From IMG/VR virus record IMGVR_UViG_2671181134_000011: a stretch of 17,913 bases of DNA; one strand, 5' to 3'. The translations under genes were made by a program, and so were the position numbers. The DNA is from a virus (Duplodnaviria > Heunggongvirae > Uroviricota > Caudoviricetes). Positions 1,918 to 17,913 of the stretch are shown here, in pieces. The notes under the pieces were generated by a model. That model saw only the letters and a list, made by a program, of their open reading frames with translations, was not told the DNA's origin and made no database searches. Every line of letters starts with the position of its first letter. Position 1 is the first letter of the stretch.

Positions 1918-2219
1918 GAATCCTCCCGGCCGGGATAATATTGTGAGTAAAATAAGGAGCGGGCTGAAGTCCGGAAGTTACAGGACAATGGCAGAAGGGA
2001 GACGACAGCCCGCAATTCGAAAAAGACCGCGCAGTTGCGCAGCCTTATGAATTCTGGTTAAAATCCATTCGATTATAAAAATGTATATCTCATGCTGTTG
2101 CCCGAACCCACTCAGGCTTTTTTTTGCCCACAAGAAAGCCCCTCCGGAGAGGGGCTGGAGAGTGGCGCTATGTGCCATTGCATGGTGCCGGTTGCCTCCC
2201 GGTGAGTTCAGTATCAGCA

Positions 2220-2261
2220 NNNNNNNNNNNNNNNNNNNNNNNNNNNNNNNNNNNNNNNNNN
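2220..2261. other. Assembly gap (run of 42 N)
   Basis: Literal N characters in the sequence. Confidence 0.95.
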
Positions 2262-2304
2262 ACGGGAAAGCAACAACCACCACACCCATCAGCCGCCCAT
2301 TTAC

Positions 2305-2336
2305 CACAAATAAAAAAGCCTTCAGGACTGAAGGCG
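2305..2336 (-). terminator. Intrinsic terminator (minus strand) overlapping the stop of the 65-aa ORF
   Basis: Perfect hairpin gccttcag/gac/ctgaaggc at 2318-2335; the plus-strand A-run aaataaaaaa at 2308-2317 gives a U-run 3' of the stem on the minus transcript. Confidence 0.4.
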
Positions 2337-2725: not shown

Positions 2726-2754
2726 ATTGAAGCAGTTTATTGATCAGTTTGCAA
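2726..2754 (-). promoter_or_regulatory. Candidate late promoter (pR'-like) overlapping the 3' end of the Q-like gene
   Basis: On minus strand: -35 TTGCAA (plus 2749-2754), 17-nt spacer, -10 TTCAAT (plus 2726-2731). It lies ~60-80 nt upstream of the tR'-like terminator, as expected for a Q-utilisation promoter-terminator unit. Confidence 0.3.
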
Positions 2755-3309
2755 CATTTTTTTCTCTGTAACAAAAGCCATACGCATGGGGGCATGTAAC
2801 ATAAATTCAGATATCCCCAACCACTGATCAATTCGGCGTCTGCACGTAACCAACGTCCACTCAGGATGATCTGCATTTAACCTTTCGGCCATTTTCAGTT
2901 TGCTCATTCCCCGTCCTTCGTACCTTTGCCGGAGAATATTGATTAGTCCGGGATATTCCCCAAGCACCTCACTGATAACGCGATCAATAATCAACGCCTC
3001 TGTGTCTGTACAATGTGACAACCAGCTCTTCTGCTTCCCTCTGGTCATATCCCGAAAAAATGCCTCAAGTTCCGGTTTTTCCAGCCCGGATTTCTTCATT
3101 CTGCGTAAAACCTCATTAACTGCTGTTTTCGTCAGCTTTTTCGAAACCAGTAACCGGTTAAACATATTTCCGTATTTACCCCCACCGATATACGACCACC
3201 GCCCCCACATCCGTAATTTCCCCTGGATCCAGACTGCTTCCAGCGTGTTCAGGCGTAAATGTTCGCCGCTTTTGCCTGTAATTTCCGGATATATCATATT
3301 TACGCTCAC
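2737..3309 (-). CDS. Putative late-gene antiterminator Q (assigned by position; family not recognised by eye)
   Basis: 190-codon ORF immediately 3' of rusA (GTGA start/stop overlap at 3306-3309; alternative ATG at 3295-3297) and immediately 5' of the pR'-like promoter and terminator. No Zn-finger motif seen, so family assignment is uncertain. Confidence 0.5.
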   Translation of the reverse strand: MSVNMIYPEITGKSGEHLRLNTLEAVWIQGKLRMWGRWSYIGGGKYGNMFNRLLVSKKLTKTAVNEVLRRMKKSGLEKPELEAFFRDMTRGKQKSWLSHCTDTEALIIDRVISEVLGEYPGLINILRQRYEGRGMSKLKMAERLNADHPEWTLVTCRRRIDQWLGISEFMLHAPMRMAFVTEKKMLQTDQ

Positions 3310-4728: not shown

Positions 4729-5007
4729 TTACCTCCAGATACGTTGCTGGAATGTGCGGGATGGACGCGGTGGGCGCTCGGAGTAAGGAAGCCTGACGGA
4801 GATTATCCAGTGACGATAATCGAGGCTGAGGGCTTTCTTAATCTCGTATCCGTGTCTGCGGTAGCACTGAATTAGCCACTCGGCCTGTTCTTCAGTGCAT
4901 GGGGGATGCTGGAACCAGTCAGATTTGAAAGTGCGGGAACGCCGCCCGTGCCTGCTGGCAAAGACGGCAGAATCATCAGAATTGTGTAATTTGGTATCGT
5001 GCGCCAT
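4729..5007 (-). CDS. Hypothetical protein, possibly rem-like (between hok and the ydfU-like gene)
   Basis: ORF-track frame 4729-5136 trimmed to the internal ATG at 5005-5007, because the upstream part overlaps the hok mRNA terminator. Weak RBS; assignment is by position only. Confidence 0.3.
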   Translation of the reverse strand: MAHDTKLHNSDDSAVFASRHGRRSRTFKSDWFQHPPCTEEQAEWLIQCYRRHGYEIKKALSLDYRHWIISVRLPYSERPPRPSRTFQQRIWR

Positions 5008-5076
5008 CGGTTGTCTCTGCTGGCGCAGCAGGTGCCAGTTGTTCAGGCTGGCGTGCGAATTGTAAACCAGAATGCC

Positions 5077-5106
5077 AGGAAAAAACAAAACCCGCCGAAG
5101 CGGGTT
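5077..5106 (-). terminator. Intrinsic terminator at the 3' end of the hok mRNA
   Basis: Minus-strand RNA: AACCCGC-UUCG-GCGGGUU followed by UUGUUUUUUCC (plus-strand stem at 5089-5106, A-run at 5080-5090). Confidence 0.6.
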
Positions 5107-5174
5107 ACGTGCGGGTGCGTTGAGGATGCCTGACATATCAGAGGTGGCGAGGGATTTCTCCCTCGCCGGGTCTC

Positions 5175-5330
5175 TTACTCCTCAGGTTCGTAAACTGTGA
5201 AGACAGCGACCTCCGTCTGGCCGGTTCGGATTCGTACCTCGCAGAGGTCTTTCCTCGTTACCAGTGCCGTCACTATGACGGTTAAACAGATGACGATCAG
5301 GGCGATTAACATCGCCTTTTGCTGCTTCAT
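5175..5330 (-). CDS. hok: Hok-family membrane toxin (51 aa)
   Basis: Translation MKQQKAMLIALIVICLTVIVTALVTRKDLCEVRIRTGQTEVAVFTVYEPEE: single TM helix and conserved C-terminal region typical of Hok/RelF. ATG at 5328-5330 with AAGGAG 10 nt upstream. The ORF track extends it in frame to an ATG at 5387. Confidence 0.8.
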   Translation of the reverse strand: MKQQKAMLIALIVICLTVIVTALVTRKDLCEVRIRTGQTEVAVFTVYEPEE

Positions 5331-5506
5331 AGCCTGCTTCTCCTTGCCTTTCGGCACGTAAGAGGCTAACCTAGATTTGCCGTTCATAGATTGAGCCTCA
5401 GATTAATGTTAAGCGTCTTGCAGGACGCGTAATGTTAACTGGGGCTTTTCTCTATCTGCCTTTTGGTATTCATGCCTGAGACAGATAGCCTCAAGCACCC
5501 GCAGCA

Positions 5507-5534
5507 ATTCTACTTAACTATCCTTTCCCCGCAA
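5507..5534 (-). promoter_or_regulatory. Candidate hok mRNA promoter
   Basis: On minus strand: -35 TTGCGG (plus 5529-5534), 16-nt spacer, -10 TAGAAT (plus 5507-5512). The predicted 5' end GGGUGCUUGAGGCU resembles the 5' end of plasmid hok mRNA as I recall it. Confidence 0.35.
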
Positions 5535-5621
5535 ATCGTTTTTATCCCCAGCGACAAATCGAATACACCACCAGCGCCACCGCCATTGCGATCCCTACCG
5601 TTGTGAATGCCTCAGGCCAGG

Positions 5622-5966
5622 TCATCGTAAAACATCCTCTGCGCTTATCAGTCCGTTTCGCTTCAGGTAGTCCATCGCCTTACCCGGCAATTTACAGTCC
5701 TGCTTCGTTTTCCTCAGTTGCCAGGTTAACTGCTTTACCAGCATGGTTAACTCGTCGACCAGACGCTGATGTCCCACTGGTTTGTATTCATGCAATTTAC
5801 CGGCTGGCTCTGCTGCCAGCGATGCCAGTGCGATTTCCAGAACAGCAATATCCATCTTATATGTGCGGATGATGTCATGGTCGTTTGTGCCCGGTATGCA
5901 CAGTCTCTGTGCTTCAATAGTCTCCTCTGCGTGAGCTATTAACTGCTCTCTGGTAAAAGTGGTCAT
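5622..5966 (-). CDS. Hypothetical nin-region protein (114 aa), paralogue of 6480-6905
   Basis: ATG at 5964-5966 overlaps the stop of the upstream gene (ATGA). N-terminus [17 protein letters not shown]...[11 protein letters not shown] parallels MTELTKEQLIEEAKLKI...KIALTSLEAEP of ORF 6480-6905. Confidence 0.5.
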
Positions 5967-6478
5967 GCCGCGCTTCCTTCTTGCTTATTAACGATTACAC
6001 CGTCATATATTTCATTAAGGTGTCCCCTCAACTCCATGCGCCTTAATGCAGACAACATGTAATCGCATTCAACCTGCTTATTTCCAGTAAATGGCTTATC
6101 GTCAGGATCACCCCAACAGCAATTACCCTTGGGCCACCCATGTACTTTCCGTACTCTTCCGTTAACAACGTGAAGTAATCCCCAGCCAGGTGGTAAATCC
6201 TCAATTGAAATAATTCCCGGCTCACTAATAAAGAATCTCCAGTCGCCCATGCCAAGAGAGGGATTTTTACGGAAACGCTTTTTTCTATCTGCCAACAAGT
6301 CAGCACGAGAACACTTCGCCTCTATCAGGCATGATGCTGAATTTCTGAATCCCATAGCATCTGGTTGTTCTCCAGTACTGGTTACAGCAACAAAGCGGTC
6401 ATGAAAGCAAACCTTGAACCCGTTGCGCTTAAGGAACCTGTACGCAATCTGACAGAGTTCGCGGTGTGTTAACGCCAT
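5963..6478 (-). CDS. Putative PD-(D/E)xK-fold nuclease (171 aa)
   Basis: Contains GEQPDAMGF-x8-LIEAK, a PD...ExK arrangement with an upstream acidic residue (HDRFVAV). ATG at 6476-6478. Confidence 0.5.
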
Positions 6479-16556: not shown

Positions 16557-16805
16557 ATGGCAAGACTTATTCTTCTCACTGAGTGGGCAAAAGAGGAATT
16601 CAGTGACCCGGTCCCGACTCCGGGCACGTTAAGTAAATACGCTAAAGCCGGAATGATATTTCCTCTCCCCAAAAAAGTTGGAAGACACTGGCGAGTGGAT
16701 CCTCGAGCTCGCTTTGTCGGAATGGTAAACAAGCCGGAAGTGATCGCCACAGATCACCCTGCTTTGAAGAGGATACTGGAAGATGGCGCGCCCACGAAAA
16801 TATAA
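16557..16805 (+). CDS. xis: Excisionase (Xis-like)
   Basis: 82 aa, MARLILLTEWAKEEF...GMIFPLPKKVGRHWRV resembles the lambda Xis fold signature (LTLQEW...RIFPPPVKDGREY). Overlaps the int start by 23 nt, as in lambda. Confidence 0.7.
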   Translation: MARLILLTEWAKEEFSDPVPTPGTLSKYAKAGMIFPLPKKVGRHWRVDPRARFVGMVNKPEVIATDHPALKRILEDGAPTKI

Positions 16806-17913
16806 AACTGAAGTTCCGGGATTATCTCCGTATTTTGACAAAAGAAATAACAAAGTTTACTGGCGTTACAGGCATCCCATAACAGGAAAAAATCACGGAC
16901 TCGGCAGTATTGACCAGAAACAGGCAGAAGCTATTGCAGCAGAAGCGAACAGCCGTCTTGCCAGGCAACAAATGGAACAAATGCTCAGTCTGCAGGAGAA
17001 AATTATTAGTGATACCGGTAGTCCATCAACCGTTTCTGCTTTTCTGAATAGTTACCGAAAAATTCAACAGGAAAGATATGAAAACGGAGAGATCAAACTC
17101 AACACACTGAAACAGAAAGCATCCCCTCTCAGAGTATTTGATGAACGTTTTGGTACCAGACCATTAGATGCCATAACCGTAAAAGATGTGGTATCGGTGC
17201 TGGAAGATTACAAGGCAAAAGGACATAACAGAATGGGACAAATTTTCAGGAAAGTACTGATCGATGTTTTCCGGGAGGCCCAGCAAACGGGCGATGTCCC
17301 GCTAGGCTTTAACCCTGCAGAATCGGCAAAAAAACCACAGGTACGGATATCACGGCAACGACTGACCTTTGATGAGTGGATGATGATTTATAATGCAGCG
17401 GAAAAGGATGGTTACTTTTTACAGCGTGGTATGCTGCTGGCACTGATGACAGGCCAGCGCCTTTCAGATATTTGCAAAATGAAATTTTCGGATATCAGGG
17501 ATGGTTATCTTCATGTCGAACAGCAAAAAACAGGAACCCGGATTGCCATCCCTCTGGCTCTGCGTTACGATAAATTAAATCTCACCCTGGATGATGTGGT
17601 GTCATCCTGTCGCGATTGCGTTCTTAGTCCGTGGCTATTGCACCACCATCATGCTAAAGGGACAGCTAAGCGCGGCGGGATGGTTAAGCCAGCAACGTTA
17701 ACCGTTGCATTTAAAAAAGCCCGGGATTCTGTGGATTACAACTGGCGTGCTAATGGCACCCCACCCTCTTTCCATGAGCAGAGATCTTTATCAGAACGAT
17801 TGTTCAGAGAACAGGGAATTGATACCAAAATTTTGCTGGGCCATTCGAATCAAAAAATGACCGATATTTACAACGACGCACGCGGTAAGGAATGGAAAAA
17901 ACTGGTCATTTGA
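16783..17913 (+). CDS. int: Tyrosine integrase, lambda Int family (376 aa, complete)
   Basis: Catalytic-region motifs TGQRLSD, HVEQQKTGTRIAIP, HEQRSLSERL and LLGHSNQKMTDIYNDARGKEWKKL align with lambda Int (VVTGQRVGD, YVEQSKTGVKIAIP, HELRSLSARL, LLGHKSDTMASQYRDDRGREWDKI). Stop codon is the last three bases of the window. Confidence 0.9.
   Translation: MARPRKYKTEVPGLSPYFDKRNNKVYWRYRHPITGKNHGLGSIDQKQAEAIAAEANSRLARQQMEQMLSLQEKIISDTGSPSTVSAFLNSYRKIQQERYENGEIKLNTLKQKASPLRVFDERFGTRPLDAITVKDVVSVLEDYKAKGHNRMGQIFRKVLIDVFREAQQTGDVPLGFNPAESAKKPQVRISRQRLTFDEWMMIYNAAEKDGYFLQRGMLLALMTGQRLSDICKMKFSDIRDGYLHVEQQKTGTRIAIPLALRYDKLNLTLDDVVSSCRDCVLSPWLLHHHHAKGTAKRGGMVKPATLTVAFKKARDSVDYNWRANGTPPSFHEQRSLSERLFREQGIDTKILLGHSNQKMTDIYNDARGKEWKKLVI

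Follow-up and report, generated by a model that had tools for sequence, protein, structure and literature searches.

An apparently intact hok/sok-family locus of the hokD/hokW subtype in a Qin-like lambdoid prophage

How much of a hok/sok toxin-antitoxin system is present at positions 5077–5534 of the Caudoviricetes sequence IMGVR_UViG_2671181134_000011? The whole stretch analysed, 17,913 nt of this IMG/VR record, is called the window here. A first-pass annotation made from the letters alone had described a complete hok/sok-type mRNA architecture in this region, and each feature that it named was present, on the minus strand, where it had been placed. In this copy no damage was seen in tac, ucb, fbi, the Shine-Dalgarno sequences, either start codon, the terminator, or the candidate Sok promoter and hairpin. 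We are highly confident that together they make up a complete and intact locus of the type I toxin-antitoxin family hok/sok, hokD/hokW subtype. The host element is a Qin-like lambdoid prophage of E. coli, with the locus in its nin-equivalent region.

The locus is an ordinary full copy of a module already known, not a new one. It carries little weight as a discovery: annotations of hok/sok in lambdoid prophages date back to the genomes of 933W and VT2-Sakai, hokW/sokW has already been characterised, and the enrichment of hok in prophages has already been documented. Of 5426 complete E. coli genomes, 4955 contain DNA similar to the locus. RefSeq, on identical DNA, has the Hok CDS only, under the name hokD, and leaves mok, Sok and the mRNA elements without annotation.

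Toxin gene, promoter and transcript

The 51-aa Hok ORF proposed in the first-pass annotation was found at 5330..5175, stop codon included (minus strand, as are all the mRNA features that follow), and matched the Pfam family HOK_GEF (PF01848) with a score of 77.3 bits (cutoff 22 bits; E = 6.4e-22). NCBIfam, which has no model specific to HokD, gave Hok-family matches below threshold only (45 bits, cutoff 73). The leader matched Rfam RF01794 at 112.4 bits (gathering score 59 bits; E = 2.6e-25) over model positions 1–157 of 157, from 5500 to 5325; the Rfam comparison that had been suggested for the locus was in this way positive, alongside the Pfam match.

The candidate promoter TTGCGG-16-TAGAAT is present as described, though its match to consensus is weak. 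Its −35-like hexamer TTGCGG (5529..5534), read from the sequence and identical in hokW of VT2-Sakai, agrees with consensus at three of six positions by manual count. The −10 hexamer TAGAAT (5507..5512) follows after a 16-nt spacer, and relatives have a TAnAAT-like hexamer (TAGAAT, TATAAT, TACAAT or TATATT) at a constant distance from tac. A consensus scan of both strands over 4900–5750, with a threshold of at least 4/6 matches per hexamer, called no promoter. Because the scan called neither the hok promoter nor the Sok promoter discussed below, both assignments rest on homology and positional conservation. Homology between copies stops just upstream of the hok −35 hexamer.

A full-length mok-hok mRNA of ~418 nt is predicted, from 5500 to 5083. 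Its start is probably at 5500, judging from position 1 of the Rfam RF01794 model and homology with the R1 transcript, and its end is placed in the T run of the terminator. The tac element (translational activator; GGGUGCUUGAGG) occupies 5489..5500 at the mRNA 5′ end, and the hok Shine-Dalgarno sequence, AAGGAG, lies at 5340..5345. Downstream of the ORF is a 3′-UTR hairpin, GGCGAGGGAGAAAUCCCUCGCC (5146..5167), seen in the MFE fold and again in the consensus fold (columns 365–372 with 384–391), where it has compensatory changes; by analogy with R1 (PMC9841398) it is likely the 3′ end protector of the processed mRNA. The fbi (fold-back inhibition) element, CCUCAACGCACCC, follows at 5113..5125. 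The intrinsic terminator of the first-pass annotation is also in place (5080..5106), as a hairpin with its stem at 5106..5089 followed by UUUUGUUUUUU, a T run reaching 5080; it is shared with K-12 hokD.

Long-range pairing and fold of the mRNA

Pairing of the two ends of the mRNA, with a one-nucleotide bulge, had been proposed for this locus, and such a helix is predicted. In RNAduplex the 5′ segment GCGGGTGCTTGAGG (5502..5489) and the 3′ segment CCTCAACGCACCCGC (5125..5111) make 14 bp with one bulged C, at −25.6 kcal/mol. When the RNA from 5502 to 5084 was folded as a whole, as the first-pass annotation had advised, the tac/fbi helix appeared in both the MFE and the centroid structures (MFE −174.7 kcal/mol, z = −10.3). 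A scan of the window for the 12-nt core complement, allowing for a one-base gap, found these two sites only, and 200 shuffles gave 0 matches.

The pairing also came through the conserved-structure analysis on which it had been staked. RNAalifold predicted the tac/fbi helix de novo on 32 homologues, with pair 6:429 being UA in 18 and CG in 12, and found compensatory changes in 21 of the 72 pairs predicted overall. RNAduplex, run on each sequence, had tac positions 3–14 paired in 31–32 of the 32, with compensatory changes at positions 6, 13 and 14; this register-free procedure selects the best pairing per sequence and so leans towards structure. On the fixed alignment 82.5% of tac/fbi cells were paired, versus 34–57% with the partner slid, and here the bias runs towards under-counting the 3′ half of the helix, since Photorhabdus-type sequences are without the bulge and one column out of register in the MAFFT alignment. 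Few independent events lie behind the covariation, mainly in the Photorhabdus clade and in Pantoea and R1-type sequences. As read from the aligned sequences, such compensatory changes, which preserve the structure in different genera, indicate that the RNA fold is under selection. The two outermost pairs of the helix (5502/5501 with 5111/5112) are probably outside the RNA if its start is at 5500; they are kept only in the E. coli/Shigella/E. albertii prophage group and in one Pantoea locus.

Two further pairings concern the 5′ end. The first 36 nt fold as a hairpin (−16.9 kcal/mol, z = −4.2) of the metastable kind of R1, in which tac is paired with GUCUCAGGCAU (5472..5498), and the same hairpin forms in a 3′-truncated RNA. 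The motif GCCCC at 5441..5445, an anti-Shine-Dalgarno sequence named ucb here by analogy with R1 (PMC9841398), is paired in the MFE structure with GAGGC of the mok Shine-Dalgarno region. This pairing is in the consensus fold as well (columns 74–79 with 121–127), where pair 79:121 is AU in 22 sequences and GC in 10. In the folding model, ucb sequesters the mok Shine-Dalgarno sequence of the full-length RNA. In the MFE structure of the 3′-truncated RNA the 5′ hairpin remained closed and the SD remained paired with the anti-SD, and the published open tac/ucb form was not seen; because the truncated RNA stays closed, thermodynamic folding does not reproduce the activation step. Manual pairing of GGUGCUU with AAGCCCC gives an R1-like tac/ucb helix, at the cost of one U–C mismatch.

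The mok start and a candidate Sok antisense RNA

An ATG lying 19 codons upstream of hok and in frame with it had been singled out in the first-pass annotation. It is at 5387–5385, 57 nt upstream of the hok start, and opens a 70-aa mok ORF (5387..5175) that shares the hok frame and adds 19 N-terminal codons (MNGKSRLASYVPKGKEKQA), with the geometry of mokW. Its Shine-Dalgarno sequence, GAGG, is 8 nt upstream (5396..5399), and GAGG was found upstream of the aligned mok start in 32 of 32 relatives. The mok frame is that of hok in 24 of these 32; the offset is 58 nt in five and 56 nt in two further ones. The claim of an N-extended frame stands, but the frame is not peculiar to this copy, being present in those 24 relatives and annotated so for mokC/hokC and mokW/hokW.

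For plasmid R1 itself, published coordinates put mok 58 nt upstream of hok and out of frame, encoding a 70-aa Mok (PMC9841398). As a proxy for R1 we used these nucleotide coordinates together with five R1-type plasmid loci whose Hok is 100% identical. The 58-nt offset was found in four of the five and the 57-nt, in-frame form in one, so the out-of-frame mok ascribed to R1 in the first-pass annotation was right for most R1-type loci, while the in-frame form is the commoner one across the sampled relatives. The literature yielded nothing useful that explicitly addresses an in-frame mok, and annotation coordinates (mokC, mokW) were used. By this comparison of sequences, the upstream in-frame ATG is the family's usual mok start.

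Ribosomes initiating at an in-frame mok would make a 70-aa N-extended Hok beside the 51-aa form. Might the longer protein be the main or only toxic species, with no independent use of the internal start of the 51-aa form? The toxin would then be controlled directly at the mok start, with no translational coupling. The exact spacing of 19 codons, in frame, in 24 of 32 relatives would suit this, as would the conserved GAGG and a predicted Sok that covers the mok start; the extension MNGKSRLASYVPKGKEKQA is basic and hydrophilic, and by inference compatible with a cytoplasmic N-terminus. Yet the hok ATG and its AAGGAG Shine-Dalgarno sequence are conserved in nearly the whole alignment, and where the offset is 58 nt (five relatives; four of five R1-type plasmids) or 56 nt (two), Hok can come only from its own start. 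Moreover, the 51-aa HokW is toxic by itself (PMC8621323), and in R1 it is the translation of mok that matters, not the Mok product (PMC9841398). We regard it as rather unlikely that the 70-aa form is the main or only toxic species.

The Sok gene, absent from the first-pass annotation, was placed at 5379–5449 on the plus strand by homology to the annotated sokW and sokC. Projected from sokW, the candidate RNA would be ~71 nt long and begin with 9 single-stranded nt at the 5′ end (GCCGUUCAU), followed by a long hairpin and then a U-rich tail. Its overlap with mok would cover the first 9 nt of that ORF, an overlap equal to that of sokC with mokC, and its predicted fold (−31.5 kcal/mol, z = −6.2) has the architecture of sokW and sokC. 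The corresponding candidate promoter, deduced from the annotated 5′ end of sokW, is TTGCCT (5344–5349)-17-TAACCT (5367–5372), on the plus strand at 5344..5372. VT2-Sakai has exactly the same sequence over this stretch, and R1-type loci have TTGCGC-17-TATCCT at its position. Function of the sokW promoter has been shown by −10 mutations (PMC8621323).

Positions 1–14 of the predicted Sok, equivalent to mok codons 1–3 and the 5 nt upstream, are hypervariable; the RNAs are otherwise 96–100% identical. This copy has 5–7 differences in these 14 nt from each other sampled copy, and copies co-resident in one genome likewise differ from one another at 5–7 of them. The Sok of one prophage copy might be unable to protect against its neighbour's hok.

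Relatives, prophage setting and proposed mechanism

The mokW/hokW/sokW locus of VT2-Sakai (Sp5; AP000422.1) is 91.5% identical in nucleotide sequence over 515 nt (window 5111–5625). It shares the promoter hexamers, the 70-aa in-frame mok, the 51-aa hok, the tac and fbi sequences and, as predicted for the window, the 9-nt Sok/mok overlap and the enlarged Sok hairpin, and 47 of 51 Hok residues are identical. The two differ in the Sok 5′ tail and mok codons 2–5 (GCCGUUCAU here versus GUUCAGCAU in sokW; 6 of the first 14 Sok nt) and at the Hok C-terminus (TVYEPEE here, VDYESEK in HokW). They also differ in the sequence after fbi: homology ends at 5111, two bases past the 3′ end of that element, and hokW is without this terminator hairpin. 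Other genes flank hokW (homologues of 933W L0134–L0142), whereas the copy in the window is between replication genes and Q. In the Stx2 phage VT2-Sakai (Sp5)/933W, hokW/sokW has been found to be toxic, Sok-suppressed and dependent on RNase III and Hfq (Takada et al. 2021, PMC8621323).

K-12 hokD (relF), in the Qin prophage, has the same position upstream of DUF968 (ydfU) and Q-like genes. Over window 5081–5344 it is 97.7% identical, which takes in the hok Shine-Dalgarno sequence, the ORF, the 3′-UTR hairpin, fbi and the terminator, and the Hok proteins agree at 50 of 51 residues (A46V). The homology stops at window 5344, 14 nt upstream of the hok ATG; beyond it K-12 has no promoter, tac, ucb, mok start or Sok, and relB-relE are directly upstream. 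The first-pass annotation had been right that the copy in the window, unlike that of K-12 with its upstream relE, is not preceded by relBE: the full leader, mok and the candidate Sok are found upstream instead. On this sequence comparison K-12 hokD is a 5′-truncated derivative whose regulatory half was replaced by relBE, and the window has the complete form. The intact copy shows what K-12 hokD has lost, namely all that is upstream of the hok Shine-Dalgarno sequence, and, as a reference for the hokD subtype, is preferable to the K-12 gene.

More distant relatives keep the same plan. In the E. coli mokC/hokC/sokC locus (gef), mokC and hokC share their stop and the 69-aa mokC starts 19 codons upstream in frame, both as here, and sokC overlaps the mokC start by 9 nt, as the candidate Sok would overlap that of mok here. 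The hokC tac is identical to that of this locus, and intact hokC-type loci pair it with CUUCAACGCACCC; the hokC product is ~80% identical to the Hok of the window. In contrast, the hokC Sok/sokT hairpin is ~18 nt shorter, hokC is located in the core chromosome, and K-12 hokC has lost its fbi to IS186. Plasmid R1 hok/sok (parB) has its elements in the same order (promoter, tac, 5′ hairpin, ucb, sokT, mok SD and start, hok SD and start, 3′ hairpin, fbi, terminator), and the tac/fbi pairing is kept in R1-type loci with CG where this locus has UA. The R1 Hok sequence is much more diverged from the Hok of the window; HokW, the closest characterised relative of the latter, is 44% identical to R1 Hok (PMC8621323). 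R1 hok/sok is plasmid-borne with demonstrated post-segregational killing.

An intact-looking locus could still be a functionally silent passenger that makes no harmful level of Hok and brings no benefit to prophage or host. A preprint (bioRxiv 10.1101/2025.08.07.668861) reports no post-segregational killing by, and no rifampicin response of, the intact chromosomal hokA, hokB and hokC loci. The promoters of the locus are below scanner thresholds, and decayed relatives exist: in one sampled copy tac is degenerate and mok interrupted, besides the K-12 hokD without its 5′ half and the K-12 hokC without fbi. Against silence, every element is intact in this copy, the compensatory changes seen in different genera indicate that the RNA fold is under selection, and hokW/sokW, ~92% identical, is an active system with an effect on phage release (PMC8621323). 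We consider a silent passenger very unlikely. That the complementarity and ORFs are chance features of prophage DNA has nothing in its favour beyond the weak promoter matches, and it is refuted by the 200 shuffles without a complement match, the fold z-score of −10.3, the Rfam and Pfam E-values (2.6e-25 and 6.4e-22) and conservation across genera, which leave it practically no credence.

The nin-like setting ascribed to the locus holds. The gene order is replication genes, hok, DUF968, RusA and a Q-like antiterminator, and everything from a cro-like YdaS gene through replication, hok, DUF968 and RusA to the antiterminator is on the minus strand. With replication genes on one side and Q on the other, the locus has the orientation of the pR-type early operon in which it lies. 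The flanking ORFs at 4729–5007 and 5622–5966 had no Pfam or NCBIfam match and that at 5963–6478 no Pfam match; no tRNA genes were found in the window. A hydrophobic 27-aa ORF (5542–5625) was considered as a second small toxin and rejected, as it is frameshifted in VT2-Sakai.

At prophage induction, antiterminated read-through running head-on into the Sok promoter could turn Hok on as an induction-coupled lysis helper. The combined proposal, that the prophage copies form separate Sok specificity classes and that the locus is coupled to prophage induction, is a tentative one, with odds that we put well short of even. We know of no description, for this copy, of either the specificity variants or the coupling to induction.

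The working of the locus is inferred here from the paradigms of R1 and hokW. The weak promoter would give a stable full-length mRNA of ~418 nt, held closed by the tac/fbi clamp; in that state it would not be translated and Sok would not bind it. Once slow trimming from the 3′ end had taken off fbi, the 5′ end would refold (tac to ucb), exposing the mok Shine-Dalgarno sequence and the Sok target. Sok, abundant but unstable, would use its 5′ tail to pair across the mok start, and the duplex would be destroyed by RNase III. Were the supply of Sok to stop, by loss of the element, shut-off of host transcription by an infecting phage or prophage induction, mok would be translated and Hok made. Hok would then depolarise the inner membrane; overexpressed HokD is toxic, according to the preprint (bioRxiv 10.1101/2025.08.07.668861).

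Layout and identity of the hok locus

Read on the minus strand (5560..5060), the window holds every item of the hok/sok-type mRNA listed in the first-pass annotation, each where it had been placed. Promoter-like hexamers TTGCGG (5534-5529) and TAGAAT (5512-5507), 16 nt apart, are followed after 6 nt by the translational activator element tac (GGGTGCTTGAGG, 5500-5489) and a leader of ~170 nt. An upstream ATG at 5387 is preceded by GAGG, and the hok ATG at 5330 by AAGGAG; the 51-codon hok ORF ends in TAA at 5177-5175. Downstream lie a GC-rich hairpin (5167-5146), the fold-back inhibition element fbi (CCTCAACGCACCC, 5125-5113), and a hairpin then a T run (5106-5080).

Family searches supported the hok/sok-type interpretation. 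Rfam model RF01794 (named sok) matched over its full length at 5500..5325 (minus strand), scoring 112.4 bits where the gathering score is 59. This model is in the hok mRNA sense, spanning GGGUGCUUGAG (tac) to the hok AUG, so the strand of the hit marks the leader, not antisense Sok. Pfam assigns the 51-aa ORF to the Hok/Gef proteins (E = 6.4e-22), and its product is identical to K-12 HokD at 50/51 residues and to HokW at 47/51. By Megablast, 4955 of the 5426 complete E. coli genomes contain similar DNA, at a median of two places per genome; strain ES5 carries identical DNA, where RefSeq annotates hokD only. The best-annotated relative in the phage collection was VT2-Sakai (Sp5), with 91.5% identity across 5111-5625 and with mokW, hokW and antisense sokW all annotated. 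The hokW/sokW locus depends partially on RNase III and Hfq and aids Sp5 release following mitomycin C (PMC8621323). Elements of this kind are already known, and a characterised close relative is ~92% identical to the one described here.

Pairing of the mRNA ends and other RNA elements

The proposed long-range pairing of the 5' and 3' elements was seen both in the single sequence and in conserved-structure analysis. The two elements form 14 bp with one bulged C (-25.6 kcal/mol); with a one-base gap allowed, the window has no further complement of the 12-nt core, and none of 200 shuffles contains one. The RNA 5502..5084 (419 nt) folded with an MFE of -174.7 kcal/mol, versus -126.2 ± 4.7 for shuffles (z = -10.3), and the tac/fbi helix is present in both MFE and centroid structures.

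For comparison we started from 47 loci with close Hok relatives, one genome per species. VT2-Sakai and one R1-type plasmid locus were included as well, and truncated or decayed copies were dropped, leaving an alignment (A1) of 32 full-length mRNAs. Its sources were Escherichia, Shigella, Kluyvera, Photorhabdus, Pantoea, Citrobacter, unclassified Enterobacteriaceae, one soil metagenome bin (labelled Proteobacteria) and one plasmid. A long-range helix between columns 3-8 and 427-432 emerged de novo from RNAalifold, with pair 6:429 being UA in 18 sequences, CG in 12, UG in 1 and broken in 1; 21 of the 72 predicted pairs had compensatory changes. Tested on A1, the helix of the first-pass annotation had 82.5% of cells paired, versus 34–57% when the 3' partner was slid by 1–3 columns. 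Its two outermost pairs were kept in only 12–14 of 32 sequences, and the inner half was under-counted because bulge-less sequences are one column out of register. Register-free RNAduplex on each sequence, which selects the best pairing, found tac positions 3–14 paired in 31–32 of 32. The pairs varied at position 6 (UA 18, CG 12, UG 1), position 13 (GC 23, GU 8, AU 1) and position 14 (GC 20, AU 11), a covariation reflecting few independent events, chiefly in Photorhabdus plus Pantoea and R1-type sequences. These pairings fit the published family model of tac/fbi, ucb and dcb (PMC9841398). Both the Rfam model and the R1 transcript have the GG of GG(G/C)(U/G)GCUUGAGG as their first bases, which makes 5500 the most likely transcript start; pairs 5502-5111 and 5501-5112 would then fall outside the RNA.

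When the full-length RNA is folded, GCCCC (5445-5441) is paired to the mok Shine-Dalgarno (SD) region, and the A1 consensus fold retains this pairing with AU/GC covariation; the segment corresponds to R1's ucb anti-SD. A hairpin with tac paired to GUCUCAGGCAU forms within the first 36 nt (-16.9 kcal/mol, z = -4.2) and corresponds to the one described as metastable in nascent R1 transcripts. The MFE structure of the 3'-truncated RNA stayed in the closed form, with the open tac/ucb conformation absent, so the activation step is only inferred. The elements and their pairings are present in the window, and the best-supported mechanism is that of R1 and hokW; from those systems we infer the transcript ends, 3' processing, refolding, RNase III cleavage, toxicity and biological role.

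At 5187-5195 on the minus strand, Tyr47 (codon TAC, 5192-5190, then G) is part of a UACG motif located in a hairpin loop. This hairpin is small and conserved (A1 columns 332-334 paired to 344-346), with compensatory changes at one pair (CG 16, UA 14 sequences) and another (GC 21, AU 8). The mRNAs of hokC, hokD and hokE, like hokB, are reported to undergo TadA A-to-I editing that recodes tyrosine to cysteine (bioRxiv 10.1101/2025.08.07.668861); the edited site, numbered 46 in the preprint, is presumably Tyr47 in UACG. A46V (GCT to GTT), the sole difference from K-12 HokD, directly adjoins the 5' side of this motif.

The mok frame and the predicted Sok RNA

The ATG at 5387, noted earlier as upstream of and in frame with hok, is the mok start, 57 nt from the hok ATG. 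K-12 RefSeq has the same arrangement, with mokC (16751-16960) and hokC (16751-16903) sharing a stop, in frame and 19 codons apart, as does VT2-Sakai with mokW (213 nt) and hokW (156 nt). In the alignment of 32 relatives a GAGG-preceded ATG occupies the homologous place; its distance to the hok ATG is 57 nt (in frame) in 24 sequences, 58 nt in five and 56 nt in two, with one misaligned. The first-pass description of R1 mok as out of frame was borne out: of five R1-type plasmid loci whose Hok is 100% identical (L004 of NZ_CP128973.1 compared with L054-L057), four have the 58-nt offset and an out-of-frame 70-aa Mok, while the remaining one, on an IncFII plasmid, has the 57-nt offset and an in-frame 71-aa Mok with a different N-terminus. 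The 58-nt offset agrees with the R1 coordinates (mok ATG 116-118, hok ATG 174-176), and R1 mutation T315A is a mok stop and Hok Y48N at once (PMC9841398). Of the versions sampled, the in-frame mok is the commoner, and its annotation is long-standing. That both frames coexist is consistent with the published conclusion that translation of mok matters, not its product (PMC9841398). The hok ATG and AAGGAG are conserved regardless of mok frame, which argues for use of the 51-aa start.

Several relatives (L009, L014, L015, L018, L019, L020, L028, L029) deviate in mok or tac, with 56- or 58-nt spacing, a non-ATG mok codon (ATA in L018) or a degenerate tac (L009); the family therefore mixes frame variants, decaying and intact copies.

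Projection of annotated sokW places a predicted Sok at 5379-5449 (plus strand), downstream of a candidate promoter (TTGCCT 5344-5349, 17 nt, TAACCT 5367-5372). This promoter stretch is the same in VT2-Sakai, where the sokW promoter was verified through -10 mutations (PMC8621323); R1-type loci have TTGCGC-17-TATCCT there. The fold of predicted Sok (-31.5 kcal/mol, z = -6.2) comprises a single-stranded 5' tail of 9 nt, a long hairpin and a U-rich tail; annotated sokW and sokC adopt the same form. It covers the first 9 nt of mok, an overlap also found in sokW/mokW and sokC/mokC.

The hairpin of Sok and its target region sokT is lengthened by an ~18-nt insertion (CGCGUCCUGCAAGACGCU; A1 columns 91-113, window ~5413-5431) carried by the prophage-type copies (window, hokW, L007-L018, L028, L029) and missing from hokC-type, Photorhabdus and R1-type loci. 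At 5375-5392 (mok start and Sok 5' tail; A1 columns 133-150), mean pairwise identity within a set of nine close prophage-type copies fell to 0.57–0.58, with flanks at 0.9–1.0. The first 14 Sok nt of the window differ at 5–7 positions from those of every other sampled copy. Co-resident copies likewise have 5–7 differences there, both L008/L016 (E. coli CP178302.1) and L011/L016, the latter co-resident in that L016 is identical to L017 of S. flexneri CP182556.1. By contrast, sokW and sokC have one and the same 9-nt tail. This pocket may be a specificity determinant.

Genomic context and K-12 hokD

Minus-strand gene order is cro-like YdaS protein, YdaT, HTH replication-initiator-like protein, DnaC/IstB-like ATPase, DUF1627, Ead/Ea22-like protein, several unknown ORFs, hok, a 92-aa unknown ORF, DUF968, RusA and a Q-like antiterminator (DUF1133/Phage_antitermQ), making "nin-like region" a fair label. 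This order is collinear with a Qin-like prophage of ES5. Possible roles would be prophage stabilisation, abortive infection upon superinfection, or assistance to lysis upon induction, a role reported for hokW; the third is an attractive candidate, given that hok is co-oriented with the early rightward operon.

In Qin, K-12 hokD sits at the equivalent position but shares only 5081-5344 with the window (97.7%); homology ends 14 nt upstream of the hok ATG, where relE adjoins directly, and the window copy, as had been noted, has no relBE ahead of it. The window thus has the complete element and K-12 hokD a 5'-truncated form. A Kluyvera sp. CHPC 1.2972 locus (L030) has the same upstream sequence as K-12 hokD (L002), with the relE-side junction in place of the hok leader, so the relBE-hok fusion is not peculiar to K-12.

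A 27-aa hydrophobic ORF (5542-5625, minus strand) overlaps the upstream gene's stop (ATGA). It falls within the block shared with VT2-Sakai (homology from 5625), where a 1-nt indel interrupts it, and is probably non-coding; the extent of this block suggests a mobile unit reaching ~90 nt upstream of the hok -35. An STnc100 Rfam match at 2126-2326 (minus strand; 47.6 bits, barely over the gathering score of 47) lies ~400 nt downstream of the Q-like antiterminator gene (2737-3309), has a strong hairpin at its end, and may be a late-promoter leader or terminator region acted on by Q.
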